Assembly (NCBI GenBank): GCA_016219015.1
Contig: JACRCL010000031.1
Coordinates: 22,159-86,158 of the forward strand
DNA: 64,000 nt
Source of the DNA: Deltaproteobacteria bacterium
GTDB lineage: Bacteria; Desulfobacterota; GWC2-55-46
Direction of reading: 5' to 3'
Below the pieces are notes generated by a model. It saw nothing but the letters and a program-made list of their open reading frames with translations. It ran no database searches and had not been told where the DNA came from. The stretch's first letter is position 1. Every line of letters starts with the position of its first letter. Shown here one piece after another: positions 2,485 to 63,967 of this stretch. The position numbers and the translations under genes were made by a program.

Positions 2485-2512
2485 AAAAAAAAACCAACCC
2501 TGGAAAGGTTGG
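2485..2512 (-). terminator. intrinsic terminator-like hairpin between the histidine kinase gene and modB
   Basis: On the minus strand: CCAACCtttccagGGTTGG followed by a T9 run. Confidence 0.55.
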
Positions 2513-2638
2513 CTTGCGTGAGAATCTCCTTTCCAACAAGGGAGGCAAGGCCGTTTCCAGCGCGTGCCCTGACGGCCAAGCCCCTTAGGCGGTTCAAGCC
2601 CTTAGGGGTATTGGCTCGGAGATTGAATTAACAAGTCT

Positions 2639-9764: not shown

Positions 9765-10981
9765 AGGGGCCTCGTCCCCGATATTATGAACACGGGGTTA
9801 TTCGCGGAAAGGAGGCTAAGCCTGCCGAGGTCTTTCGCCCTTGAAAGGCCCACCTGCAGAAGCTCCTTCTCCCATCCCTTTTTTTTGAAAAAATCGAACG
9901 CGGCATGCGCCGTTTCAATGGTGACGGCGTTCACCACGGCCCTTCCGCCGGGCCTTACCCTTCGCGCGCAGTACGAAAGTATGGCCCGAAGCCCGGCCCC
10001 GCCGCCGCCCACGAATATAGCGTCAGGGCGAGGGAGCTTTTTAAGGCATAGCGGCGCCAGACCCTCGACCACCTCGACCCCTTCCGCGTTGAAGCGGTTT
10101 CTATTCCTCTTTATCTGCGCCGCCCTTTTTTTGTCTTTTTCTATGGCGTAGACCGGGCCGAAGGTCATGAAAGAGGCCTCTATGGCCACGGAGCCGCACC
10201 CCGAGCCTATGTCCCAGACAACGCTGTTATTATTGATATTGAGCTTGGACAGTGCTATGACCCTCAGCTCCTCCTTTGTTATCATGCCTTTGGAGTGGCT
10301 GAAGAGCGCGTCCGGGATACCGAGCCTCTTTGCAGCGGCCGGTCTTGCTGGTCTTTTGCGGATGAGCACCATTATATTCAAAGGCCCGAAAGACCTCATT
10401 GCGGCTATTTCAGCGAGGCTGCCGCGTGTTATCTTTTCCTTTTTCGTCCCGAGCGATTCGCATACAAAGGCCCTGTAGCCCGTCATTCCTTTGTCTATGA
10501 GCGCGCGGGCTATCCTCGAAGGGGTGTTCGTAGAGTCCGTAAAGACGGCAGCCCTGTCATGCGGGGCCAATTCACCGCAGAGCTCTTCGGGGGTCTTATT
10601 CCTCCCGTGGGCGCTCAATACCTTGACCCCGTTCATGTCCTCCTTTATCTTAGCGAACGCCTCCTGTACGGTACTCACGTTAGGGATGACCTCGACGTTC
10701 CTCTTCCCGAACCTCTTTATGATGAAAGAGGCGGCCCCGAAAAGGAGCGGGTCTCCGGTTGCGAGCACGACGACGCTCCCTTTCCTTTTGACCTCTTGCC
10801 TTATCTCGGAGGCGAGCCAGTCGAGGTCCGGCCCAATGGCGAGCTTTTTTGCCCCGGAGTCCGGGAACTCGTCGAGGTGCCTCTTCCCCCCGGCTATGAG
10901 GGTAGCCCTCTTTATCAGCCCGAGGGGTCTTTTGCGGAGGCTTTCCCTGCCTTTAAGCCCTATCCCTATCACGTGTATCAT
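9761..10981 (-). CDS. cbiET: cobalt-precorrin-6B/7 C5,C15-methyltransferase (decarboxylating), CbiE-CbiT fusion
   Basis: The N-terminal half is CbiE-like tetrapyrrole methylase. The C-terminal half is a CbiT-like SAM-dependent methyltransferase (VWDIGSGCGSVAIE). Confidence 0.8.
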   Translation of the reverse strand: MIHVIGIGLKGRESLRKRPLGLIKRATLIAGGKRHLDEFPDSGAKKLAIGPDLDWLASEIRQEVKRKGSVVVLATGDPLLFGAASFIIKRFGKRNVEVIPNVSTVQEAFAKIKEDMNGVKVLSAHGRNKTPEELCGELAPHDRAAVFTDSTNTPSRIARALIDKGMTGYRAFVCESLGTKKEKITRGSLAEIAAMRSFGPLNIMVLIRKRPARPAAAKRLGIPDALFSHSKGMITKEELRVIALSKLNINNNSVVWDIGSGCGSVAIEASFMTFGPVYAIEKDKKRAAQIKRNRNRFNAEGVEVVEGLAPLCLKKLPRPDAIFVGGGGAGLRAILSYCARRVRPGGRAVVNAVTIETAHAAFDFFKKKGWEKELLQVGLSRAKDLGRLSLLSANNPVFIISGTRPL

Positions 10982-14842: not shown

Positions 14843-15718
14843 TTAAAGTCCCAACGACAGGAAGAAGACGAACCACGCAAGCCCTACCCAGAGGAGGTCT
14901 TTCTTCCCCATCCGCGCCGGGCCTATCGCGTCGAGTTTCCCGTTAAAGCCCCGGGAGGCCATAGCCATACTGACCTCTTCGGCGGTAGATAATGATTTCT
15001 TTAATATTAACGCTATCCTGGAGGCGAACCAGTCCTGGGATTCCCTGAGGCTCCCTTTGGCAAAGGTCCTCGATTTGCGCGCCAGTGTGGAGTCCTCGGC
15101 CACCTTTAAAAGGACGAATATGTACCTGAACGTCATGAAGAGCGTTGTTACGAAGAACGCGGGCAGGAACTGCCTCAAGCCCCTGAAAAAATCCGTCTGC
15201 CTCGTGGTAAGCAGGAGTAGCATCACGAGCGAGGCCATGAGGCTCACCCTTGAGATGAAAAAAAACGCAGTCCCCGCGCCCTGCCGGGTAACGTAGATAC
15301 CCATAAAACCAGCTATTGGCTCGCCCGGCGTCACGAAGCTGAAAAATACCGGCAGCAAGAGCACGGAAGTGAAAAGGAAAGAGGGCAAGACCCTTTTTAT
15401 GAGCGCGCTTAAACCCACCTTTGATAGCAGGGCTATCGCTAATGTTACGAGGAATACCCCGCTGAGCGCGACAACCCCGGAGGCGGCCACGCAGGCGAGG
15501 ACGAGCGCGAGGACGCCGAGTATCCGGGCCCTCGGCTCGACGGCCTGCAGCAGGCCTTTTTTAGAAGCATAGCCCTCGAAGTAGACCATCTTGCCGAAGA
15601 AAGAGGCGATGCCTTCGAGGTTCTTCTCCAGGAACCCCGGCGCGGAGTCCTTGCCGTCCGCAAGGCAGGGCGCGTCCCTTGCCTCCTTGAGCCATGCGGG
15701 GAGTTTTACTTCGGCCAT
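14843..15718 (-). CDS. cbiQ: cobalt ECF transporter transmembrane (T) component
   Basis: CbiQ-like polytopic protein. Start taken at MAEVKL (15718). The ORF-track start 15994 overlaps cbiMN and is likely spurious. Confidence 0.7.
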   Translation of the reverse strand: MAEVKLPAWLKEARDAPCLADGKDSAPGFLEKNLEGIASFFGKMVYFEGYASKKGLLQAVEPRARILGVLALVLACVAASGVVALSGVFLVTLAIALLSKVGLSALIKRVLPSFLFTSVLLLPVFFSFVTPGEPIAGFMGIYVTRQGAGTAFFFISRVSLMASLVMLLLLTTRQTDFFRGLRQFLPAFFVTTLFMTFRYIFVLLKVAEDSTLARKSRTFAKGSLRESQDWFASRIALILKKSLSTAEEVSMAMASRGFNGKLDAIGPARMGKKDLLWVGLAWFVFFLSLGL

Positions 15719-16680
15719 AGCCTGCCCCAGAGATATACTATCAGCACTATCATTCCGCTCCCTATGGCCGCGGATAAGACATAGAATAAAGCGGAGGCGC
15801 CCCTCCCGGCCCCATAAAACGTAAACGTATAGCCGGGCAGCAACCCTTTCCACACCCCGCCAAGGACCTCCATGCCCGCGGGCACATAGCCGATGAGTTC
15901 CTTTATGCCGGAACTCCCCCACTCGCCCCACGGCGTCACGGCGGCGATAAGCCCGAGAGGGGTCAATACGATGAGGAATATCAAGACGGCCCACAGGGGC
16001 TTTAAGCCCTCCCGCCTTTTTATAAGCCCCTCGTCAGTCTTATATATGTAAGATATTATGAGCGCGGTCCCGAGCGCCTCTACCGGGCCGAAGAATAAGA
16101 GGTGCGGGAGCATCATGGCTGGTATCGCGATGGAAAGTGGATACGGCGCGTAAAGGGGCCTGCCGTCAGCCCCGTGGGCTATCGCAGGCTGGATGCCGAG
16201 CTCGACGGCCACAAACAGCGCCGCGAGGTTCAGGGCTATATAAGCGGCAAGGGCTGAAGCGAAGCCCCTCCTGGGCCTCCCCGGGCTTCTTCCGGCGAGC
16301 GCGCCGTAGATATAATAGCCGCTAAAGCTCATCACGAGCGCCATGTTGAAGGAGTTCGCCCCGAGGGTCGTTATCCCGCCGTCGGCGAAGATGAAGGCCT
16401 GCAGCGTAAGGGCTATCGTAAGAGCTATCACCCCGGCCCAGGGGCCGAGCGCGACAGATACTACAACGGCCCCCACCATGTGGCCCGATGAGCCGCCCGG
16501 TATGGGGATATTGAGCATCATCACCACGAAGGCGAAGGACGCGCCGAGGGCGAGCAGCGGTATCTCTTTGAGCTTTAGCTCTTTTTCTACTTTACGGGAC
16601 GAGACGTACCATGCGGGGAGCATCAATGCGTAGAAAAAGGCGCAGGTCCTGGGGCTCAGGTATCCGTCAGGTATGTGCAT
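15706..16680 (-). CDS. cbiMN: cobalt ECF transporter substrate-capture component, CbiM-CbiN fusion
   Basis: Begins MHIPDGYL, the essential CbiM N-terminus. 324 aa with a C-terminal CbiN-like 2-TM extension. Confidence 0.8.
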   Translation of the reverse strand: MHIPDGYLSPRTCAFFYALMLPAWYVSSRKVEKELKLKEIPLLALGASFAFVVMMLNIPIPGGSSGHMVGAVVVSVALGPWAGVIALTIALTLQAFIFADGGITTLGANSFNMALVMSFSGYYIYGALAGRSPGRPRRGFASALAAYIALNLAALFVAVELGIQPAIAHGADGRPLYAPYPLSIAIPAMMLPHLLFFGPVEALGTALIISYIYKTDEGLIKRREGLKPLWAVLIFLIVLTPLGLIAAVTPWGEWGSSGIKELIGYVPAGMEVLGGVWKGLLPGYTFTFYGAGRGASALFYVLSAAIGSGMIVLIVYLWGRLWPK

Positions 16681-16694
16681 AGGCCCTTAGCAGA

Positions 16695-16744
16695 CTTCAA
16701 ATACCTCCATCCGCTTCGTTGGCTTCAAACGTCATTGCAACGTA
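16695..16744 (+). repeat. short interspersed repeat, family E copy 1
   Basis: CTTCAAATAccTCCatCcGCTTCGTTGGCtTC...GTCATtgcAACGTA. About 85% identical to 20796-20843. Confidence 0.7.
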
Positions 16745-16758
16745 CTTTCACATTCACC

Positions 16759-16800
16759 GATAACCGATAACTGATAACCGATAACTGATAACTGATAACC
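16759..16800. repeat. heptanucleotide tandem array, 6 units of GATAAC(C/T) (rc (A/G)GTTATC)
   Basis: gataaccgataactgataaccgataactgataactgataacc. Lies between the cbiXC stop and the cbiMN start. Confidence 0.9.
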
Positions 16801-16803
16801 GTC

Positions 16804-17832
16804 CTATATCCGCGCGCCCGCCTTCTCGGCGGCATTCGCGGCCTCTATCGCCAGAGCGTTGACAATCGCCACGGCCACGGTGCTCCCGCCCTTCCTCCCG
16901 GAGGAGGCTATGAATTCGAGCCCGCTTTTCATAAGCTCTTCCTTTGCCTCGGCCGCGCCCACGAAGCCCACAGGCACGCCGATTATGAGCGCGGGGCGCG
17001 GCGCTCCGGCCCTTATGAGCCTCAGTAGCTCGAATAACGCCGTAGGGGCGTTGCCTATGGCCACGACCGAGCCGTTCAGGAGCCTTACGGCCTTCCTCAT
17101 CGAGGCCGCCGTCTTCGTGATATTCTCCATCCTTGCCGTAAGCTCCACATCCTTGTCCGATGAGAAGCAATATACCTTCGCGCCGAACGGGTCGAGCCTG
17201 TACTTCATTACCCCGGCCTCCACCATCCTTACATCGGTTATTACCGGGCGGCCGGCCCTTATGGCCTCTATGCCGGCCTCGACCGCGCCGGGGCTGAAGC
17301 GAAGCAACTCCCTGAACTCGAAGTCCGCTGTTGTATGTATGACCCTTTTAACTATCGGCAGCTCGATCGGGGATATACCTCTTTCATCGAGTTCGCCCCC
17401 TATTATCCTGAAGCTCTCCTCCTCTATCGGGTGCCGCCCGAGGGGCGCTTCCACTGCCTTGACCTGTGTTTCCGCGAGCCTCTCAAGGGTTATGTCTATG
17501 AGCTTATCGTGGAAGCCGAGCCATTTCGCGTAGGTGATCTTGAGCCCCTGGTGGGCTGAGAGCGCCTTTTCTATCTCGGCCGGAATGTCCTGCGTCACAT
17601 GGAGGCCGGGGTAGAGGAAGTAAGGCATGACGACAATATCGTTAAAGCCCTTTGCTACAAGGCTGTTTACGCCTTCCTGAAAATCTGGATCTGCCAGCTG
17701 GAGGAAGGCGGGCAATACCTCGCCGTAGCCCCCGGCCCTTTTTACGGCAACGGCGACCTTCTTCAAGGTCTCGTTCGCCTCTTTCGCCTTGCTGCCGTGG
17801 CCGAGGAGCAGTATCGCCTTATCAGTGTCCAT
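16804..17832 (-). CDS. cbiXC: sirohydrochlorin cobaltochelatase (small CbiX type) fused to cobalt-precorrin-8 methylmutase (CbiC)
   Basis: The N-terminal ~120 aa are CbiX-small (ILLLGHGSK..., VVMPYFLYPGLHV). The C-terminal ~210 aa are CbiC/CobH (VIHTTADFEF, GNAPTALFELL, GVPVGFVGAAEAKEEL). Start ATG at 17832 has a GGGAAAGGG RBS. Confidence 0.8.
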   Translation of the reverse strand: MDTDKAILLLGHGSKAKEANETLKKVAVAVKRAGGYGEVLPAFLQLADPDFQEGVNSLVAKGFNDIVVMPYFLYPGLHVTQDIPAEIEKALSAHQGLKITYAKWLGFHDKLIDITLERLAETQVKAVEAPLGRHPIEEESFRIIGGELDERGISPIELPIVKRVIHTTADFEFRELLRFSPGAVEAGIEAIRAGRPVITDVRMVEAGVMKYRLDPFGAKVYCFSSDKDVELTARMENITKTAASMRKAVRLLNGSVVAIGNAPTALFELLRLIRAGAPRPALIIGVPVGFVGAAEAKEELMKSGLEFIASSGRKGGSTVAVAIVNALAIEAANAAEKAGARI

Positions 17833-17897
17833 CGTGTACGCCCTTTCCCTTAAACCGGTTTCTACCCTTAACAAGCTGCTGAAAAACTATTTTAGTC

Positions 17898-17988
17898 TGT
17901 CATTCTGAGCGGAGCGAAGAATCTCGGGGCTGATTGAATCAACAAGTTACGGGATTCTTTCGTCGCCTTCGGCTCCTCAGAATGACAA
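17898..17988. repeat. MITE-like imperfect inverted-repeat element, family A copy (TGTCATTCTGAGCGGAGCGAAGAATC ... GATTCTTTCGTCGCCTTCGGCTCCTCAGAATGACA)
   Basis: Terminal inverted repeats of about 26-35 nt around a 20-nt core. Inserted between the riboswitch terminator and the cbiXC start. A second copy lies at 37212-37300. Confidence 0.8.
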
Positions 17989-18000
17989 CTTCGTGGATTT

Positions 18001-18250
18001 AAATAAAAAAACCCCGCCTTCGTATGAAGGTAGGGCTCCCCAAAAAATATACCAGCCCTCACCTTCTTTACCTTCGAAGAGCCTCGTGAGGATTATCCGG
18101 GCAGGTATCCTGACTTACGGCTTCGTCCTAATCTCCGCGCCTTCCCGGCTTGAGGCCAGTGGCGGTTTGCGGATTTCGTAGCCGATTACAGTGGCGGGTC
18201 CGTTCCCGAATCTCTGCTCAAGCAGACCACGGGATTCCCTTTTAGCCCCT
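18001..18250 (-). promoter_or_regulatory. cobalamin (AdoCbl) riboswitch with terminator-type expression platform, heading the cbi operon
   Basis: The minus strand reads AAAAGGGAATCCCGTGG...GACCCGCCACTGTAA...GCCACTGGCCTCAAGCCGGGAAGGCG. This matches the B12-box and conserved GGGAA/GCCACTG core. A hairpin plus T7 run follows at about 18001-18040. Confidence 0.8.
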
Positions 18251-18357
18251 TGGCGGGCCACCCGGACAAGCTGTTAAATGATTACATTTCAGTGCAGGCA
18301 AGTCAATACAAATCAAAATGGCGGGACCCCCGGTCCCGCCATCTAATAGCATATATG

Positions 18358-18465
18358 GGTATGCCGGCCTTGACCCGCCGCTTTAGCGGCGGGTCAAGGC
18401 CGGCAAATAAAAATGATTTTCCATACCATCAAATTCTCCGTCATTTATAGCGGAGAATTTTCATC
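18358..18465 (+). repeat. interspersed repeat family B copy 1 (contains an 18-bp perfect hairpin CCGGCCTTGACCCGCCGC/GCGGCGGGTCAAGGCCGG and a terminator-like stem-TTTTCAT)
   Basis: Shares about 110 nt with 23452-23563 (GGGTATGCC...CAAGGCCGGCAAATAAAAATGA..TTCC.TACCATCAAA.TTCTCCG.CATTTAT.GCGGAGAATTTTCAT). Confidence 0.8.
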
Positions 18466-18478
18466 AACCCCGTCTTTT

Positions 18479-19387
18479 CTACGCCCCCTTTGCCCCATTC
18501 TCCACGGCCATTCCGGGCCTTTCCATCTCAAGCAGGACCTTGCCCTGCCTGAATATCCTTATTATGCCGGTCGACCCGGAGATGGTCACGGCTATGGCGT
18601 CGGTCACGTCGGTTATCCCCGCCGCGGCCATGTGCCTGCACCCGAGCCCGGGCATGTGCCCCTCTTCCTCCAGCGCCGCGTCGAGGTGGACCCCGGCGGC
18701 CATCACTATGCCGTCCTCCCTTATCAGGAAGGCGCCGTCGAGGAGGGCGAACTCCTTAATCGTTTCGTGCACCGCCTCGTCGAGGATGTTACGCGTCTCT
18801 TCGGGGTACCCCTTGAAGGGGTTCATTATGAGGGGCCGGGAGAGCTTCGATACCTTTTCGTTGTCCCCTATGACGAAGGTCGTGCCCACGGCCCTGCCTT
18901 CCCTGCCCTCGCTCGACAGGCCCAGCGCTATGGAAAGTACCGCCTCTATCACCGCAGGCTTTACCTTCTTAAGGAGGTCCCTGGAGATGCCCATTGTGGT
19001 GAAGACCTCGGTCTCGCTCTTCAGGTCAAGGACCATGATGGTGTCGAGCGAGCCGCTCGACGGCACGCCCGTAAGGCAGACGACCTTATCCGAGCTGTCT
19101 ATGACCCCCTCGGTTATGCACATGATGGTGGCGAGCTTTATCTGGGCGAGCCTTGAGAGCCTCACCATCGGGAGCCTTACCACGGCCTTCACGTCTTTCC
19201 TGTAAGGCTCGAGCGCCTTTTCGGTCTCGGCCTTCTGGGTAACGAGGATGAGCCTTTTCCCGCTCCGCGAGCCTTTCCAGAACCTCCAGTCGTCCACCGC
19301 GTCGAGGAATACGACGAGCGCGGAGGCCTTGACGTCCCTCAAGACCCCGAGCGCGCTGCCCATCATCGACCTGCTAAGCTCCGGCAT
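18479..19387 (-). CDS. diadenylate cyclase (c-di-AMP synthase), DacZ-type with N-terminal pyruvate-kinase-C-like domain
   Basis: The C-terminal DAC domain carries the DGA and RHxAA motifs (LDGAFLIREDG, LGCRHMAAAGITDVTDAIAVTISGSTGIIRIF). Confidence 0.7.
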   Translation of the reverse strand: MPELSRSMMGSALGVLRDVKASALVVFLDAVDDWRFWKGSRSGKRLILVTQKAETEKALEPYRKDVKAVVRLPMVRLSRLAQIKLATIMCITEGVIDSSDKVVCLTGVPSSGSLDTIMVLDLKSETEVFTTMGISRDLLKKVKPAVIEAVLSIALGLSSEGREGRAVGTTFVIGDNEKVSKLSRPLIMNPFKGYPEETRNILDEAVHETIKEFALLDGAFLIREDGIVMAAGVHLDAALEEEGHMPGLGCRHMAAAGITDVTDAIAVTISGSTGIIRIFRQGKVLLEMERPGMAVENGAKGA

Positions 19388-20790: not shown

Positions 20791-20795
20791 GCAGG

Positions 20796-20843
20796 CTTCA
20801 AATAAGTCCGTCTGCTTCGTTGGCATCGTCTTGTCATAACGTA
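20796..20843 (+). repeat. short interspersed repeat, family E copy 2
   Basis: CTTCAAATAagTCCgtCtGCTTCGTTGGCaTC...GTCATAACGTA. Homologous to 16695-16744. Confidence 0.7.
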
Positions 20844-20941
20844 AGGTGAGTACGTCTCATTCCTAAGCTCCTTGCCGCCTCGCATCCGGGGCTTTTTGAG
20901 CAGCCTGAACACGCACAGCGCACTGAAGAGAACAAAATAAA

Positions 20942-23336: not shown

Positions 23337-23450
23337 TGAACACGCACAGCGAGCGCATTCCCCGCTGCTTGCGGCGGGGTTTAGCGAGCGAATCGAAATT
23401 TTTTCCTTTTGTGTCGAAGATTCCCCGCAGCTTGCTGCGGGGAGATTCAA
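23337..23450 (+). repeat. family C two-hairpin element copy 1 (sense orientation, 207 nt upstream of the CopD/HemJ-like gene)
   Basis: TGAACACGCACAGCGAGCGCATTCCCCGCTGCTTGCGGCGGGGTTTAGCGAGCGAATCGAAATTTTTTCCTTTTGTGTCGAAGATTCCCCGCAGCTTGCTGCGGGGAGATTCA. It is the exact reverse complement of 24698-24810. Confidence 0.9.
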
Positions 23451-23451
23451 T

Positions 23452-23563
23452 GGGTATGCCAGCCGCAATCCCGTCGCTTTAGCGCCCAAGTCAAGGCCGG
23501 CAAATAAAAATGACCTTCCGTACCATCAAAATTCTCCGCCATTTATGCGGAGAATTTTCATTA
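23452..23563 (+). repeat. interspersed repeat family B copy 2
   Basis: Homologous to 18358-18465. Ends in TTCTCCGCcatttatGCGGAGAATTTTCAT (stem plus T-run). Confidence 0.8.
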
Positions 23564-24693: not shown

Positions 24694-24697
24694 CCTT

Positions 24698-24810
24698 TGA
24701 ATCTCCCCGCAGCAAGCTGCGGGGAATCTTCGACACAAAAGGAAAAAATTTCGATTCGCTCGCTAAACCCCGCCGCAAGCAGCGGGGAATGCGCTCGCTG
24801 TGCGTGTTCA
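24698..24810 (-). repeat. family C two-hairpin element copy 2 (sense strand is minus; abuts the ogt start)
   Basis: Identical (as reverse complement) to 23337-23450. Its 3' end, ...GGGGAGATTCAAAGG, runs into the ogt ATG. Confidence 0.9.
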
Positions 24811-26760: not shown

Positions 26761-27297
26761 TCAACGCTGGTAGACCCCTATTGTCTTCGCCTCCGCCAGT
26801 ATGTGCCCTTTCATCGCCCTCTCCACCTCGTTCTTACGCGCCCCGTTGGGTACGCCGAGCGTCGGGACATCGAGGGCCCGCAGGGTAAAGACATACCTGT
26901 GACGGCCATGCCCTTTGGGCGGGCACGGCCCTCCGTAGCGCGCCTGCCCGAAATCGGTAAGGCCCTGCTTTAGGCTGTCCTTTAGCCCCTCGGTCCCCGC
27001 GCCCCTCTCCAGCCCCTGCAGGTTTGAAGGGAGGTCATAGACGACCCAATGGACGAACGTCCCCATCGGGGCGTCCGGGTCCTCCACCGTGAGGACGAAA
27101 CTCTTTGTGCCTGACGGGGGGTTCTCCCATACAAGCTGAGGTGACAGCCCCTCGCCCTCGCAGCTGAACTTCTTTGGTATCACCTCTCCCTCCTTGAAGT
27201 CCTGACTTCCAAGCCTGAAGCCCATGCCCTCACCCCCTTTAGAATAGGTAGCCGCACAGAGCAATATACATAAAGCGGCAATTGATATTTTCAACAT
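26761..27297 (-). CDS. YbhB/YbcL-family (PEBP / Raf-kinase-inhibitor-like) protein, secreted
   Basis: PEBP motifs (LTVEDPDAPMGTFVHWVVYDLP, GGPCPPKGHGRHRYVFTLRALD). Start MLKISIAAL has a signal peptide. The ORF-track N-terminal extension translates the family-C repeat. Confidence 0.8.
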   Translation of the reverse strand: MLKISIAALCILLCAATYSKGGEGMGFRLGSQDFKEGEVIPKKFSCEGEGLSPQLVWENPPSGTKSFVLTVEDPDAPMGTFVHWVVYDLPSNLQGLERGAGTEGLKDSLKQGLTDFGQARYGGPCPPKGHGRHRYVFTLRALDVPTLGVPNGARKNEVERAMKGHILAEAKTIGVYQR

Positions 27298-27413
27298 GAA
27301 TCTCCCCGCGGCAAGCCGCGGGGAATCTTCGACACATAAGGAAAAATTCGATTTCGATTCGCTCGCTAAACCCCGCTGCTTGCAGCGGGAAATGCGCCCG
27401 CCATGCGTGTTCA
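27297..27413 (-). repeat. family C two-hairpin element copy 3 (about 90% identity), with its 3' end overlapping the PEBP start codon
   Basis: TGAATCTCCCCGCGGCAAGCCGCGGGGAATCTTCGACACATAAGGAAAAATTCGATTTCGATTCGCTCGCTAAACCCCGCTGCTTGCAGCGGGAAATGCGCCCGCCATGCGTGTTCA. Confidence 0.85.
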
Positions 27414-33783: not shown

Positions 33784-33877
33784 TGAATGGGAATCTTCGA
33801 CACAAAAGGAAAAAATTTCGATTCGCTCGCTAAACCCCGCCGCAAGCAGCGGGGAATGCGCTCGCTGTGCGTGTTCA
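33784..33877 (-). repeat. family C element copy 4 (lacks the promoter-distal... actually gene-proximal hairpin; the 3' end supplies the AAGGAGG RBS context of the DJ-1 gene)
   Basis: TGAATGGGAATCTTCGACACAAAAGGAAAAAATTTCGATTCGCTCGCTAAACCCCGCCGCAAGCAGCGGGGAATGCGCTCGCTGTGCGTGTTCA. Identical to copy 2 except for a 20-nt hairpin deletion. Confidence 0.85.
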
Positions 33878-34056
33878 AGGCATAATCCCCCGAGATTAAT
33901 GGATTATACAGCCTTTTTACCCCTTGTCAAAGACCGCCGCCTGACTTGCGCACCCGTGATTTTAGGTCTAAGATTAAATAGCAGATAAGCGGTCCCGCGA
34001 ACGCTTAGGAATGGCTTTAGACAAGACTGCACAACTAATTAATAAGGAGCGCTGTC

Positions 34057-37118: not shown

Positions 37119-37211
37119 GGATAGCCTCTCTGCGCGGGCCTGTGAAATCGTCCAAAAGCCGCTGACGGGCTTTTACAAACTTTAGGGAAGCTCTGATTAA
37201 TTATGTTTCCT

Positions 37212-37300
37212 TGTCATTCTGAGGGAGCTTTAGCGACCGAAGAATCCCGTGACTTCTGATTTGTCTATATGCGAGATTCTTCGCTGCGCTCAGAATGACA
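37212..37300. repeat. MITE-like inverted-repeat element family A copy 2
   Basis: TGTCATTCTGAGGGAGCTTTAGCGACCGAAGAATC...GATTCTTCGCTGCGCTCAGAATGACA. Lies in the mscS-GT intergenic region. Confidence 0.8.
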
Positions 37301-37423
37301 CGCGGTTATGAATTAACCAGAGGTTACTTGGAGATACTTTTAGAGGATAATTGGGATATCGCGGGCTGTCAAGCCGGGGGGCTAAGCGGGAGGCTGATTT
37401 TGATCTATGCCGAAATTGCGAGC

Positions 37424-37462
37424 GACGAAGACAACGAAGCAGATGGACTTTTTGGGCAGCCT
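37424..37462 (+). repeat. repeat family D copy 1 (GACGAAGACAACgAAGCAGATGGACTTTTTgggCAGCCT)
   Basis: 92% identical to 50201-50239. Related 30-nt motif ACGCAGATGGGCGTTTTTCAGCATAAAA at 62768 and 62925. Confidence 0.75.
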
Positions 37463-38506
37463 CTAATCCCTTATCTGGACTGTCTTTATTGGGAAGGGTA
37501 TCTCCATCCCTTCCTGCCTGAACCTCTTGAAGATGCGTTTGATCAGCTCGTTCTGGACAGGGGCGCGGTCCGTGTACCCGGCAACATGGCATACCAGCGT
37601 GAACTCGAGCCACGCGTCGCCGATGCTGAAGATAACGCCCGGGGCCGGCTCGGAAAGGAGCCCCTTCACGGCGCCGGAGGCCCTTACGGCCTCGTCCTTC
37701 AATACGGACTCCACCCTGTCAGGGTCGGCGTCTATCCCGGCCCTCACCTTGACAACGGCCGTGGTGCGCCTCTCGGGCATGCAGTAGTTGGTTATTATGG
37801 ACTGCGAGAGCTTGTTGTTGGGGACTATTATCAGGTTGTTCGAAAGCTCCCGTATCTTCGTCGTCCTCCAGCCGATATCGGCCACGTGCCCCTCCTCGCC
37901 GGAGGCGAGTTTTATGTAGTCGCCGAGCCTTATCGATTTTTCCGCCAGTATATGCATGCCCGAAAATAAGTTTGAAAGTGTGTCCTGCAGCGCGAGGGCC
38001 ACGGCGAGGCCGCCCACGCCCAGGGCCGTCAATAGCGGGGTTATGGATATGCCGAGGCTGTTCAAGACTATGAGGAACCCTATCGCGAAGATGACGGCCT
38101 TCATCACTGTGCGCGACAGGCCCGTAAGAGGGGCGCTCATGGTGGACTTCTCCACCGCGCCCTGCACGGCCCTCGATCTTATGTTCGCGGCCGCCAGAGT
38201 TACCGAAAGGATTATGAGCACGTAGAGGACCGACAGGCCGTAATTGACGTACTTCGCCGGGAAGGGGGAGGTGTCGAGCGCGATATAAAGGCCTACGGCA
38301 AGCGCCCAGAATATGGACGGGTGCTTGAGGGACTCGATTATTATGTCGTCGAGCTGCGTTTCCGTCTTCTTCGCCCACCTGTGGAAATAGCCGAAGGCCG
38401 CCTTCCTCGCTATGAGGAGGACTATGGACGAGCCTATGAATACGGCTGAGAAGATCAGATAGGCCTTGATGGTATCGGCGTCCGCGTGGATCGATATGCC
38501 CTGCAT
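37463..38506 (-). CDS. mscS: small-conductance mechanosensitive channel (MscS family)
   Basis: MscS core (pore-lining TM3 GVGGLAVALALQDTLSNLFSG, beta-domain GDYIKL...GHVADIGWRTTKIREL...NNLIIVPNSKL-like). Confidence 0.85.
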   Translation of the reverse strand: MQGISIHADADTIKAYLIFSAVFIGSSIVLLIARKAAFGYFHRWAKKTETQLDDIIIESLKHPSIFWALAVGLYIALDTSPFPAKYVNYGLSVLYVLIILSVTLAAANIRSRAVQGAVEKSTMSAPLTGLSRTVMKAVIFAIGFLIVLNSLGISITPLLTALGVGGLAVALALQDTLSNLFSGMHILAEKSIRLGDYIKLASGEEGHVADIGWRTTKIRELSNNLIIVPNNKLSQSIITNYCMPERRTTAVVKVRAGIDADPDRVESVLKDEAVRASGAVKGLLSEPAPGVIFSIGDAWLEFTLVCHVAGYTDRAPVQNELIKRIFKRFRQEGMEIPFPIKTVQIRD

Positions 38507-50068: not shown

Positions 50069-50200
50069 ACCTAAACAGGCCGCTCAAAAAATCCAAATTA
50101 AGCCCAAATTTGATTCAGGCTGCTCAAAATCGAGTGAGCGAGGCCCCTATTGAACTTAGGGGAGCTTAGGAATGGGCGTACTCGCCTTTCGTTATGACAA

Positions 50201-50239
50201 GACGAAGACAACAAAGCAGATGGACTTTTTCAGCAGCCT
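50201..50239 (+). repeat. repeat family D copy 2
   Basis: GACGAAGACAACaAAGCAGATGGACTTTTTcagCAGCCT. Upstream flank similarity (CAAAATCGAGTGAGCGA ~ GAAATTGCGAGCGACGA) extends the element to about 100 nt. Confidence 0.75.
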
Positions 50240-50240
50240 G

Positions 50241-51119
50241 CTACTTCAGGATATTCTCAGGAGAGATAAGGTGTCTGGACAGGCCCATCTCCTCGGGGCT
50301 TAAGTCCAGGGCCAGGCCCACGAGCTGGGCAAGATGGAATACAGGCATCGATATGTTCGCCCCGGACTTCTTCTCGGCGAGCCTCTGGTAGTTGTCGAGG
50401 TTTATGTGGCAGAACGGGCATGGCGTCACGAAGCAGTCCGCGCCCCTGCCCTTGCCGTCAAGCAGCCTCGCGGCGGTCATGAGCTCGGCGGTCTCTTCGG
50501 CCACAAGGTCCACCTGGAAGCCGCAGCATTTCGTCTTGCCCCTGTACTGTACGGCTTGAGCGCCGAGGGCCGTGATGGTCGCTTCCAATGACCACGGCTT
50601 TTCCGGGTCGTCGAAGCCGAGGGCCGAGGAGGGCCTCAGGCTGTGGCACCCGTAGAAGGGCGCCACCTTAAGCCAGTTAAGGGGCTTTACGACCTGCTTT
50701 TCAAGTCTGTCGAGGCCGTAATCGCCGGCCAGCACCCAGAGGAGCTGCTTTACCTCGATATTGCCGCTGTAATGGAGGCCCGCTCTTGCGAGCGTGGAGT
50801 TCGTTCTTTCGAGCAGCTTCGGGTCGTTCTTCAGGTCCCTGTTAGCCGTTGACATGACCATCAGGCAGGTCGAGCATATGGTCATGATGTCCATGCCCAT
50901 CTCCTCGGCCTCGGCGAATATGCGGGCGTTGAGCGTTATATAGAGGTCGTAGTCGTAATCGGTCAATAACCCGGCCCCGCAGCAGTTCGCCTTCGGCATG
51001 TCGTGGAGCTCTATGCCGAGCCTTTCGGAGATGATCCGAGTGGTCTCGTTCGCCTCTTTCGTGATGGCCTGGGAGGCGCAGCCCGGATAGTACGCGTATC
51101 TTAAGGTCTTGTCCATCAT
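50241..51119 (-). CDS. succinate dehydrogenase/fumarate reductase HdrB-like subunit with two CCG domains (SdhE/TfrB-type)
   Basis: Two Cx31-39CCGx35-39CxxC modules (PGCASQ...NCCGAG...CSTC; YGCHSL...KCCGFQ...CPFC). Lies downstream of sdhA-sdhB. Confidence 0.75.
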   Translation of the reverse strand: MMDKTLRYAYYPGCASQAITKEANETTRIISERLGIELHDMPKANCCGAGLLTDYDYDLYITLNARIFAEAEEMGMDIMTICSTCLMVMSTANRDLKNDPKLLERTNSTLARAGLHYSGNIEVKQLLWVLAGDYGLDRLEKQVVKPLNWLKVAPFYGCHSLRPSSALGFDDPEKPWSLEATITALGAQAVQYRGKTKCCGFQVDLVAEETAELMTAARLLDGKGRGADCFVTPCPFCHINLDNYQRLAEKKSGANISMPVFHLAQLVGLALDLSPEEMGLSRHLISPENILK

Positions 51120-61749: not shown

Positions 61750-62589
61750 TTAGAAATCGCCGTACATCCTCTTTATTTCCGCGGCCGTGTAGACAGGGCC
61801 TTCCTTGCATACGTAAACGTCGCCGACGTTGCACCTGCCGCATTTGCCCACCCCGCACTTCATCTTGTTCTCAAGGGTGGTATAGACGCTGTTCTCGTCA
61901 AACCCGAGCTTAAGAAGCGCATTAAGGACGAACTTTATCATTATCGGCGGCCCGCATGTGACAGCTACCGAGTTGGCCGCCGAAGGCGCAGCCTCCTCTA
62001 ATATCGTAGGCACGAACCCGACCTTCCCCTTCCAGTCCGGGGTCTGGCCGCCGGGGTCCACGGTCTGGACGAGCTTCACGTCCCTTCTATCCTCCCAGTG
62101 GGCGAGCTCGTTCTTGTAGACGAGGTCGGCCACGGTCTTGGCGCCGTAGACGACGGTGATATCGCCGAAGTCCTCGCGCCTGTCGAGCACGTTCCAGATG
62201 ACCGAGCGCACCGGCGGCAGCCCTATGCCCCCGGCTATGAATACGATGTTCTTCCCTTTCCATTCGTCAATGGGGAAGAAATTCCCGTAAGGCCCCCTGA
62301 AGCCCATCGTGTCGCCTATGGACAGCCCCGCGAGCCCGCCCGTGACCCTGCCGGTCCTTCTGAAGGTGCACTGTATGTAGCCCTTCCGGGTCGGGGCCGA
62401 GGCTATGCAGAAGGTCGATTCGCCCAGGCCGAAGGCCGAGTAGAGCCCGAACTGGCCGGCCTTGAAGTCGAACGAATCGCGCACGGCCGGGTCCTTGAAT
62501 ACCAACCTGAAGCTCCTTACGTCCGGCGCCTCTTCGTATATGTCCTCTATGGTTACGAGGTGGGGGAGATAAATGTTGTTCATACTCAA
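61750..62589 (-). CDS. FAD/NAD(P)-binding oxidoreductase subunit with C-terminal [2Fe-2S] (PyrK / sulfhydrogenase-gamma HydG / AsrB family)
   Basis: Ferredoxin-reductase fold (RSFRL...GQFGLY, FIAGGIGLPP). C-terminal CGVGKCGRC. Confidence 0.75.
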   Translation of the reverse strand: MSMNNIYLPHLVTIEDIYEEAPDVRSFRLVFKDPAVRDSFDFKAGQFGLYSAFGLGESTFCIASAPTRKGYIQCTFRRTGRVTGGLAGLSIGDTMGFRGPYGNFFPIDEWKGKNIVFIAGGIGLPPVRSVIWNVLDRREDFGDITVVYGAKTVADLVYKNELAHWEDRRDVKLVQTVDPGGQTPDWKGKVGFVPTILEEAAPSAANSVAVTCGPPIMIKFVLNALLKLGFDENSVYTTLENKMKCGVGKCGRCNVGDVYVCKEGPVYTAAEIKRMYGDF

Positions 62590-62618
62590 TCCTTATTTTC
62601 CATGCTAAGGGAAGCACA

Positions 62619-62737
62619 AGTTATCAGTTATCAGTTATCGGTTAACAGTTATCGGTTATCGGTTATCAGTTAACAGTTATCGGTTATCGGTTATCAGTTA
62701 ACAGTTATCAGTTAACGGTTATCAGTTATCAGTTAAC
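62619..62737. repeat. heptanucleotide tandem array, 17 units of (A/G)GTTA(T/A)C, with a 28-nt higher-order repeat
   Basis: agttatc x3, ggttaac, then [agttatc ggttatc ggttatc agttaac] x2, and so on. It lies directly upstream of the PyrK-like gene start (62589) and is the reverse-orientation counterpart of the array at 16759-16800. Confidence 0.9.
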
Positions 62738-62745
62738 GGTGGCCC

Positions 62746-62759
62746 CTCAGAATGACAAC
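62746..62759. repeat. solo right-arm fragment of MITE family A (CTCAGAATGACAAC)
   Basis: Matches the right terminal repeat of 17898-17988 including the flanking ACTTCG. Confidence 0.6.
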
Positions 62760-62765
62760 TTCGCC

Positions 62766-62795
62766 CAACGCAGATGGGCGTTTTTCAGCATAAAA
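62766..62795 (+). repeat. 30-nt direct repeat copy 1 (CAACGCAGATGGGCGTTTTTCAGCATAAAA); includes the hairpin CGCCCAacgcagaTGGGCG followed by T5
   Basis: Repeated at 62923-62952, flanking a 127-nt AT-richer segment. Confidence 0.8.
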
Positions 62796-62922
62796 ATAAA
62801 CCACTTTTATTTATTCCAAAACCCTTTTTTTATGCTCAAAAATGTCCAGATGCGAGGAATGACAAGGGATTGAACCGGAGCATACTTTTTCAGTATGTGA
62901 GGATTCAAGCCCGCAGTCATGA

Positions 62923-62952
62923 CAACGCAGATGGGCGTTTTTCAGCATAAAA
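62923..62952 (+). repeat. 30-nt direct repeat copy 2
   Basis: Identical 30-mer to copy 1. Ends 4 nt before the stop of the HydB-like gene. Confidence 0.8.
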
Positions 62953-62956
62953 TAAT

Positions 62957-63967
62957 CTACTTCGACATCTCCTCCATCACTTCGGTAATATCCAGCCTCA
63001 CCGGGCAGACCCTTATGCACCTGCCGCACCCGACGCAGCCCTTTGACGAGAACTTGTCCGGGTAGATGTTGAACTTGCACATGAAGCGGTTCCTCCACCT
63101 CTTGTACTGGAACTCCCTCGGGTTATGCCCGCTGGCGTGGAGCGTGAAGGTGTCGTACTGGCACGAGTCCCAGTTCTTCCTCCTCTCGCCGCCGAAGGCC
63201 ATGCCCTCGTCCGTTATATCGAAGCAGTGGCAGGTGGGGCAGACGAACGTGCAGGCCCCGCACCCTATGCACTTCCTCGTAAGCCGTGCCCAGACAGGGT
63301 CGTCGTAGTGCTCCTTTTTCGAAAGCCTCTCGGCTATCCTGGCAAGGTCTATGCCCGCTATCTTCTCCGGCATGAAGAGCTTTTTCGTCTTCGTGTCCTT
63401 CGCGTCCTCGAAAGCGGCCGCGTGCTCTTCGATAAACGCCCTGCCCCTGTCCGTGATTGCTTTGGCGATGTAGTCCCCGCCCTCGGTCTCCTTCAGATAT
63501 ACGTCGCTCCCCGAGGTCGATTCAGGCGAAAGCCCGACAGTGGTGCAGAAGCAGGCCTCGTCGCCTTTTGTGCAGGCCACGGTCAATACTACCGTCTTAT
63601 CCTCCCGCTGCGTGTAGAACTCGTCTATGAAGTCCCACGTGAAGACCGCCCTCAGGGCCGAGAGGCTCTCGGCCTCGCAGGGGCGCGCCCCGAAGATGAC
63701 CGTGGTGGAGGGCTCGACGTCCCTCCCCTGCAGGTCTATCCCATCCTTATGGACGGTAAAGTCAGCTATGACCTCGGTCTGCGGGAAGAGGTACTCCTTG
63801 TACGAGTTCCGAGCGAGTATATGATCGAAAGATATCTCCTCCGCCTTTTTTACGGCCTTGAACACCACCTGGCGGGCATCAAGCGAAGGCGCTATGAACC
63901 TCCCGCCCCTGTTGACGACGGAGCCTATGAGCTTGTCGAAATTTACTTTTCTTAAAAGTTTATCCAT
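62957..63967 (-). CDS. HydB/AsrA-family iron-sulfur protein (sulfhydrogenase beta / anaerobic sulfite reductase subunit A-like, multiple [4Fe-4S])
   Basis: Cys clusters CEAESLSALR...CTKGDEACFCTT, CIGCGACTFVCPTCHCFD and CVGCGRCIRVCP. First gene of a 4-gene minus-strand operon. Confidence 0.7.
   Translation of the reverse strand: MDKLLRKVNFDKLIGSVVNRGGRFIAPSLDARQVVFKAVKKAEEISFDHILARNSYKEYLFPQTEVIADFTVHKDGIDLQGRDVEPSTTVIFGARPCEAESLSALRAVFTWDFIDEFYTQREDKTVVLTVACTKGDEACFCTTVGLSPESTSGSDVYLKETEGGDYIAKAITDRGRAFIEEHAAAFEDAKDTKTKKLFMPEKIAGIDLARIAERLSKKEHYDDPVWARLTRKCIGCGACTFVCPTCHCFDITDEGMAFGGERRKNWDSCQYDTFTLHASGHNPREFQYKRWRNRFMCKFNIYPDKFSSKGCVGCGRCIRVCPVRLDITEVMEEMSK

Follow-up and report, generated by a model that had tools for sequence, protein, structure and literature searches.

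Why do two tandem arrays of a single heptanucleotide, RGTTAWC, stand between the genes of two operons in one bacterial genome, and do they matter to those genes? The question was raised by a stretch of 64,000 nucleotides (nt) from Deltaproteobacteria bacterium, an uncultured member of the Desulfobacterota represented by a metagenome-assembled genome (MAG; lineage GWC2-55-46, GenBank assembly GCA_016219015.1, contig JACRCL010000031.1, positions 22,159 to 86,158 of the forward strand). This whole stretch is referred to below as the window and all positions are counted from its first letter; loci from other assemblies carry L numbers. By sequence, both arrays are to be classed as degenerate members of the TAACTGA direct repeats (MacGregor 2015, Front Microbiol 6:1397, PMC4679880), a class already described of which they form a further example. 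As to their origin, we lean towards the view that they are TAACTGA-type simple repeats that arrived with, or arose at, the insertion of an element resembling a miniature inverted-repeat transposable element (MITE). Their length would then have drifted through slippage or unequal recombination, with the spacers between cistrons tolerating their presence.

Array 1 (16759-16800, plus strand) consists of six units, GATAACC, GATAACT, GATAACC, GATAACT, GATAACT and GATAACC, each a permutation of TAACYGA. Array 2 (62619-62737, minus strand) consists of 17, namely seven GATAACT, five GATAACC, four GTTAACT and one GTTAACC; the two arrays are mutual reverse complements. Tandem Repeats Finder returned 16756-16801 for array 1 (period 7, 6.6 copies; period 21 as well) and 62619-62735 for array 2 (period 7, 16.7 copies; period 28, 4.2 copies, 93% matches). 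A 28-nt block, AGTTATC-GGTTATC-GGTTATC-AGTTAAC, occurs twice in array 2 at 62647-62702, and all five GTTAAC-containing units lie in that array. Both arrays are far above chance expectation: RGTTAWC was counted 41 times in the window (23 of them within the arrays) against 20.9 ± 5.2 in shuffled sequences, and a two-unit pattern with up to two mismatches gave 28 matches where 1.7 were expected, a number reached by none of 100 shuffles.

A preliminary description of the window, made from the letters alone, had reported the 6- and 17-unit arrays of one 7-mer, the duplicated 28-nt block and GTTAAC units of the longer one, and their opposite orientation relative to minus-strand genes. All of this was borne out by the repeat finder, the counts and the reverse-complement match. 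It had also held that the arrays are neither a clustered regularly interspaced short palindromic repeat (CRISPR) array nor coding, and this was upheld. CRISPR arrays have repeats of 23-50 nt and unique spacers and mostly lie close to cas genes, whereas the units here are 7 nt, contiguous and without spacers. A coding tract was excluded by stop codons in all three forward frames, the GTTAAC units adding TAA stops in the reverse direction of array 2. Likeness to a Fur box, which has GATAAT hexamers, was set aside since the repeat period here is 7 and not 6, and a Rho-utilisation site because YC dinucleotides are few.

Both arrays were recovered in independent assemblies (L001; L122/L123; L131/L132), which ruled out an artefact of assembly. 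For the 119-nt array 2, some uncertainty attaches to the exact length in a MAG built from short reads. Exact-sequence look-up of CbiM returned one 2.5-kb Logan contig, which breaks within array 1; the same look-up with SucC and the HydG-like protein gave no match.

RGTTAWC is the reverse complement of GATAACY, and GATAACT is a circular permutation of TAACTGA. Ten of the 23 units are exact TAACTGA permutations, eight are of the TAACCGA type and five contain GTTAAC; the non-exact forms (GATAACC, GTTAACT, GTTAACC) differ from GATAACT by one or two bases. The published class was defined as heptamers in tandem, head to tail, with 'split' sets that include related 7-mers allowed (MacGregor 2015). 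Here, the same heptamer is likewise arranged head to tail between genes and interrupted by one-base variants. Published TAACTGA repeats have no predicted RNA structure and carry stop codons in the forward frames, Cyanothece strains are distinguished by 7-nt indels in them, and up to 43 units are found in some species (MacGregor 2015). Each of these features has its counterpart in the present arrays, including the stop codons in all forward frames, the 7-nt indels between close strains and the length of array 2. For forward-strand RNA, a folding energy of 0.0 kcal/mol was predicted for array 1 and of −9.8 kcal/mol over 119 nt for array 2, the latter solely from GUUAAC self-pairing. The reverse strands were predicted to fold somewhat better (−4.6 and −19.1 kcal/mol, respectively).

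In the BOGUAY genome, most TAACTGA repeats point forward and closely precede a start codon (132 of 170 sets); this majority class is not universal in Microcystis, and a reverse class pointing 'toward stop codon' is also listed (MacGregor 2015). Array 2, forward and upstream of a start codon, resembles the majority, and array 1 belongs to the reverse minority. Unlike the published repeats, which lie 1 nt from the start codon in place of a Shine-Dalgarno sequence, array 2 lies 35 nt from the ATG and is followed by a separate Shine-Dalgarno sequence. TAACCGA is rare as a repeat in BOGUAY, whereas it is common here, and GTTAAC units occur here too. The host lies outside the groups listed in 2015 (Beggiatoaceae, Thiocystis, many Cyanobacteria and a few Bacteroidetes) and adds a host at phylum level; protein matches carry the labels 'Deltaproteobacteria bacterium', 'Thermodesulfobacteriota bacterium' and Desulfobacterota_UBA5799. 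That host range is too narrow and is descriptive of the class rather than defining. A further difference is that both arrays here are joined to the arm of a hairpin MITE-like element, a link that the 2015 paper did not report. Function was only hypothesised there, as a site for a translational regulator, and with regard to transfer 'no mechanism is evident' (MacGregor 2015). In our literature search, no functional follow-up on TAACTGA heptamers was found after 2015, and a preprint on other heptamers in Nostoc only speculates on function.

Two broader categories of repeat were also compared. In the cyanobacterial loci retrieved here, several heptamer families are mixed at one site. Short tandemly repeated repetitive (STRR) heptanucleotides, reportedly described by Mazel et al. 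in 1990 for heterocystous cyanobacteria only and with CCCCAGT as STRR1, are said to be likewise tandem heptamers, dispersed in intergenic regions, with several families mixed at one site; their unit sequences differ from the present ones. In the summary given by MacGregor (2015), the long simple sequence repeats with units of 5-11 nt (Mrazek et al. 2007) are most commonly heptanucleotides, have a sporadic phylogenetic spread and were proposed to originate by polymerase slippage. They form a general category with no set sequence, unlike the one specific heptamer common to many phyla that is considered here.

Operon context and orthologous gaps

Both arrays are wholly intergenic, between annotated genes. 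Only 3 nt separate array 1 from the stop codon of the preceding gene, a cbiX-cbiC fusion (16804-17874, minus strand), and 78 nt lie between it and the ATG (16680) of the downstream cbiM (15706-16680, minus strand; CbiM and PDGLE domains), which is followed by cbiQ and cbiO. The true start of cbiX-cbiC is probably about 15 codons inside the listed open reading frame (ORF); its ortholog was called at 341 amino acids. A cobalamin riboswitch (18083-18280, minus strand; 106 bits), with a promoter-like site just before it and a terminator-like stem (18017-18030) just after it, heads the operon upstream of cbiX-cbiC, which puts array 1 about 1.3 kb into this operon. Relative to the cbi genes the array is in the antisense orientation, and their mRNA would accordingly show RGUUAUC.

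Array 2 separates the genes for two subunits of one redox complex. Upstream is a gene for a HydB/AsrA-like Fer4_22 iron-sulfur subunit (62957-63967, minus strand), whose synteny is seen in relatives, and downstream is a gene for a HydG/AsrB/FlxA-like FAD/NAD(P)-binding subunit (61750-62583, minus strand; ATG at 62583, at a distance of two codons into the ORF as listed). Relative to the latter gene, array 2 is in the TAACTGA sense. The 35 nt between array and ATG (62584-62618, minus strand; TGTGCTTCCCTTAGCATGGAAAATAAGGATTGAGT) hold an AAGGA Shine-Dalgarno sequence and are kept in L122/L123. In relatives, the HydB-like and HydG-like genes belong to a long co-directional cluster in the order hdr-like genes, flpD, HydB-like, HydG-like, ferredoxin-like, flavoprotein, sucCD and oorDABC.

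The preliminary description had placed each array directly 5' of the first gene of an operon. Instead, both are intercistronic, between cbiX-cbiC and cbiM and between the HydB-like and HydG-like genes. A sigma-70 consensus scan of the gene strand found no promoter in either gap, which is weak evidence given the crude, E. coli-like consensus used; no terminator consensus was found on the gene strand of the gaps in the scan. Rfam returned no family for either gap, permissive thresholds giving chance microRNA-like matches only. Because both arrays are intercistronic in conserved operons and no gene-strand promoter was found, they would not act through −35/−10 spacing or reading frame in the manner of classic phase-variable repeats.

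Orthologous gaps were compared in about 190 kb of material from the clade. In the hyd gap, L122/L123 (HydG-like protein 97% identical) have the same flanks, including the arm and the 35-nt stretch, and an array reading GTAACC, GATAACT, GATAACT, GATAACT, GATAACC and GATAACT, that is five full units and one 6-nt partial unit. Array 2 thus has 17 units over 119 nt where its ortholog has 35 nt of full units plus the 6-nt partial one. In the 90% relative (L124), the gap is 60 nt with neither array nor element, and in the 87% relative (L125) it is 171 nt with a related hairpin element and no array. The 60-nt gap of L124 ends with ..GGACTGATAGACTGATTATG (9975-10000 of that locus), two imperfect ACTGATA-like units right before the ATG, which may represent a proto-repeat or a chance resemblance. 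In the cbi gap, the array of L131/L132 (CbiM 93% identical) likewise counts six units, one of them altered by a C/T change, and the 78% relative (L133) has a plain 60 nt with neither array nor element. In a relative with 88% identical CbiM, the canonical element terminus CAGATGGACTTTTTCAGCAGCCTG stands next to cbiM at the same place, where the contig ends.

Since the arrays are present at both sites in the closest relative (93-97% protein identity) and absent from the gaps of relatives at 78-90%, both are recent gains, and they look dispensable for the biology of either operon. This dates the gain, and the hyd gap adds a clear change of unit number, 17 vs. about 6, at one orthologous site. The length of array 2 has changed threefold, and that of array 1 has remained unchanged.

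These comparisons bear on a proposal of the preliminary description, that 7-bp repeats at promoter-proximal positions are substrates for slipped-strand variation. A change of array 2 in 7-nt steps agrees with such a substrate, whereas a promoter-proximal role does not agree with intercistronic gaps in which no promoter was found. The comparison of homologous loci, suggested there as a check, gave a different unit number for array 2 and a fixed one for array 1. A contingency (phase-variation) locus, in which slipped-strand changes of unit number would switch or tune the downstream genes within a population, is an explanation to which we give very little credence. The 17 vs. about 6 units of array 2 and the 7-nt indels among Cyanothece strains speak for it, and a precedent, as summarised by MacGregor (2015), is given by the AGAT repeats in the 5' untranslated region of Moraxella uspA2. 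The phase-variable repeats of Moraxella catarrhalis (uspA1 poly-G, uspA2 AGAT), again as summarised there, are similarly short tandem repeats upstream of a start codon with a strain-dependent unit number. Unlike them, the present arrays are intercistronic in housekeeping operons with no promoter involved, and the comparison here is one of consensus sequences. The arrays lie neither in an ORF nor, by the crude consensus scan, between promoter hexamers, and the flanking genes serve cobalt uptake and a redox enzyme, not the cell surface or host interaction. Unit numbers were also identical within two independent MAG pairs (L122/L123 and L131/L132), a MAG consensus being blind to heterogeneity within a population, and array 1 has six units in both lineages.

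The hairpin element beside the arrays

Both arrays are directly preceded, in the TAACTGA sense, by a homologous arm, which they abut at its inner end with the same polarity and the same CACC junction. The arm abutting array 1 (16686-16758, plus strand), which reads ...CCATCCGCTTCGTTGGC...GTCATTGC...CATTCACC up to the array, was aligned with other copies of the element. The arm abutting array 2 (62738-62806, minus strand) borders it with TTTATGCTGAAAAACGCCCATCTGCGTTGGGCGAAGTTGTCATTCTGAGGGGCCACC, is read as ..CCATCTGCGTTGGGCG..GTCATTCTGAGGGGCCACC up to the array, and L122/L123 have kept both this arm and its array. The arms beside array 1 and array 2 come from different subfamilies. On its far side, array 1 has no second arm and array 2 has a vestige of one at best; there, the 35-nt stretch 62584-62618 resembles, by eye only, the other terminus of the element (..GAGCATAAAAAAAGG).

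The element family is dispersed, non-coding and about 120 nt long, with inverted termini like CAGGCTGCTGAAAAAG..CCATCTGC..TTCGTTG..GTCAT. Other copies were found at 20793-20912, 50117-50242, 37392-37464 (partial) and 62828-62952. The last of these is complete, folds into one long hairpin and lies between the stop codon of the HydB-like gene and the arm-plus-array unit; L122/L123 are without this 125-nt element. In its length, lack of coding capacity, terminal inverted repeats, long hairpin, several copies in the window and presence or absence among relatives, the family resembles MITEs and hairpin repeats of the repetitive extragenic palindromic (REP) and bacterial interspersed mosaic element (BIME) type. 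The heptamer array itself is no MITE, and only one arm stands beside each array. No obvious target-site duplication was seen at the junctions read and no partner transposase was identified, no systematic search having been made for either. A literature search with the motif words of the element found nothing relevant, and Rfam gave no match to it.

The physical link between array and hairpin element is new relative to the literature consulted. On the account towards which we lean, the arrays would have entered the two intercistronic gaps with one arm of the MITE-like element, or grown from it, and would be young, dispensable, non-coding tracts of this Desulfobacterota lineage. Their orientation would be fixed by the element and not by the genes; the opposite orientations of the two arrays relative to the genes would arise because the elements inserted in opposite orientations, array polarity being fixed to the arm. 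Replication slippage or unequal recombination could then expand or contract the tracts in 7-nt and multi-unit (28-nt) steps. A four-unit block is duplicated inside array 2, and its flanks are identical to those of the ortholog with about six units.

Two loci leave the array as possible cargo of the element, as a tract grown at its inner end or as its insertion target. A stronger form, that the array is cargo of the element or generated at its inner end, and that 'arm plus (TAACTGA)n' is a portable module put before genes, appears doubtful to us. If true, it would explain how the repeats are dispersed, for which the work of 2015 could name no mechanism. Equally doubtful is its combination with a function, in which the module would act either as a leader without structure and with every frame closed by stops, or as a platform for protein binding. 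An antisense small RNA ending at a terminator-like stem on the plus strand (62762-62780) was also considered; it was rejected because the stem is a terminus of the MITE-like element and array 1 is without an equivalent.

Spread, strand polarity and possible function

A genome scan with three consecutive units, using one genome per species, returned at least 120 loci. The matches listed fall into at least about 10 phylum-level groups, among them Cyanobacteria, Beggiatoaceae (Thiomargarita/Parabeggiatoa), Bacteroidota, Poribacteria, Planctomycetota, Chloroflexota, Acidobacteriota, Synergistota, Verrucomicrobiota and Desulfobacterota, and stand beside unrelated genes. This suggests a far wider distribution of the TAACTGA class than was known from the 2015 paper.

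The breadth of this spread weighs on the proposal, made in the preliminary description, that the arrays are binding sites for a GTTA-recognising regulator. With the same array beside unrelated genes in so many groups and none in the gaps of the 78-90% relatives, the proposal is unlikely. In its fuller form, stacked DNA operator sites would recruit a GTTA- or GATAA-recognising transcription factor controlling both cbiMQO and the redox operon, which we consider highly improbable. Direct heptamer repeats do bind some regulators, such as SARP-LAL, according to what is cited in a preprint; the 21-nt period of array 1 equals three units and two helical turns, and GTTAAC units are palindromic. Set against this, no promoter consensus was found on the gene strand near either array, the cbi operon already has a riboswitch upstream, the arrays are missing from the orthologous gaps of L124, L125 and L133, and the two arrays differ in orientation and greatly in length.

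Polarity was determined for 149 arrays of at least three units in the listed scan loci, relative to ORFs with a minimum length of 100 codons. In the 100 nt before an ORF start, 61 arrays were in the TAACTGA sense and 15 antisense; within 30 nt the numbers were 41 vs. 2, ORFs being called mechanically and arrays of related species not being fully independent. When arrays with similar flanks were collapsed, 50 sense and 15 antisense arrays remained within 100 nt (p = 1.6e-5) and 37 vs. 2 within 30 nt. The result extends the observation made in BOGUAY to a broad sample. Such a bias is strand-specific, and the constraint behind it is therefore probably exerted at the level of RNA. Array 2 and its ortholog fit the sense-upstream majority; array 1 does not. 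Together with the broad scan, the sense bias makes the repeat class worth a proper census. Relative to the literature consulted, the new points are the host lineage, the wider taxonomic spread, the redundancy-reduced polarity statistic, the dated gain with its 17 vs. 6 units at one orthologous site and the junction with the element.

The sense bias is the chief point in favour of a cis-regulatory platform at the RNA level, as hypothesised by MacGregor (2015), in which (UAACUGA)n would bind the ribosome or an RNA-binding protein (S1-, Csp- or CsrA-like) and set downstream initiation. The same preference in BOGUAY, the predicted lack of structure in sense RNA and the position of array 2 and its ortholog, in the sense direction 35 nt upstream of the ATG, are in line with it. 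Array 1 is not, being antisense and 3 nt past a stop codon, and array 2 is followed by a Shine-Dalgarno sequence of its own. Relatives have the same operons with plain 60-nt gaps and no array, unit numbers that differ threefold among close relatives do not suggest a tuned site, viral contigs lack the polarity bias, and no binding protein was found in the literature search. For the two arrays of the window we hold such a platform to be possible but rather unlikely.

Several points weigh against the account that we prefer, in which the repeats are tolerated passengers of the element. The sense bias before ORF starts elsewhere (37 vs. 2 within 30 nt) suggests selection, and a purely neutral view leaves it unexplained. 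For the link between array and element, two events were available, one at each array locus of this lineage. A metagenome scan for GTCATT followed by an array gave, among the matches listed, unrelated cyanobacterial and Beggiatoaceae loci and none with the element of this lineage. Finally, array 1 has exactly six units in both lineages, unlike a very unstable tract. Under the same account, the 119 nt of array 2 would precede the HydG-like gene's Shine-Dalgarno sequence in the mRNA and form a leader that has almost no structure and contains stop codons in every frame. This leader may ease ribosome loading, and could mildly favour HydG-like translation or uncouple it from the upstream gene. Array 1, being antisense, would probably be an inert spacer.

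Sequences next to the arrays of other taxa were also inspected. In the 60 nt upstream, the mean folding z-score was −0.39, and z was below −2 in 14.5% of cases compared with 5.5% for the 60 nt downstream, a weak tendency of these arrays to follow structured sequence. No flank motif common to different phyla was found. In cyanobacterial arrays, many of them from Okeania, a recurring context was observed, composed of a hairpin (e.g., CCTCCGGCTTTAGTCGGAGG), TACT, (GATAACT)n and GAAATGAC (L011, L022, L024, L041, L045, L047, L057, L059, L085, L087, L088, L094, L098, L099, L105, L113 and others). AATGAC directly follows 27 of the 149 arrays. This is too frequent for a Met-Thr start only and suggests a dispersed composite element in cyanobacterial genomes as well. 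Identity of AATGAC with the GTCATT of the present lineage was rejected, as it lies on the opposite side of the array and in the opposite sense. A further lineage-specific arrangement of hairpin and then heptamer array was seen in JGI metagenome contigs (L147, L203, L232 and L252; Ga0190315 and others), where the block immediately before the arrays is a conserved hairpin, GCCACGGAAAAACACGGAAAAACACGGAAATATTCCGTG..GTCATTCCGTGGCT. Fifty-four IMG/VR viral contigs (L256-L309) carry at least four GATAACY units; in these, orientation relative to ORF starts showed no bias (11 vs. 18, similar flanks collapsed).

Further repeats and features of the window

A palindromic type related to the hairpin element was found at 17877-17995 and 37193-37300 (TGTCATTCTGAG..GAAGAATC..CTCAGAATGACA). 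One such element lies between the riboswitch terminator and the start of cbiX-cbiC, inside the riboswitch-controlled leader. A separate 117-nt repeat with two GC-rich stem-loops (CCCCGCAGCAAGCTGCGGGG ... CCCCGCCGCAAGCAGCGGGG) is present in four copies (23337-23453, 24694-24810, 27297-27413 and 33789-33878), in both orientations and up to 99-100% identical. These copies bracket sequence of lower G+C content (0.47-0.51 at 22-26 kb and 32-34 kb, vs. about 0.58 elsewhere), and the bracketed stretch may be an island or mobile region.

A 72-nt direct repeat (18393-18464 and 23490-23561; 81% identical) contains a short hairpin (AATTCTCCG..CGGAGAATT); one of its copies closely precedes the promoter-like site of the operon headed by the cobalamin riboswitch. 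Beside the cbi operon, here as in L131 and L133, a gene at 18479-19387 (minus strand) encodes a DacZ-type diadenylate cyclase with a Pfam DacZ_P sensor and a DAC domain, in this case in a bacterial MAG. The DacZ_P and DAC architecture has been described mainly in archaea. At 2510-2633 (minus strand), a molybdenum cofactor (Moco) riboswitch was identified with 66 bits, compared with a gathering score of 36.

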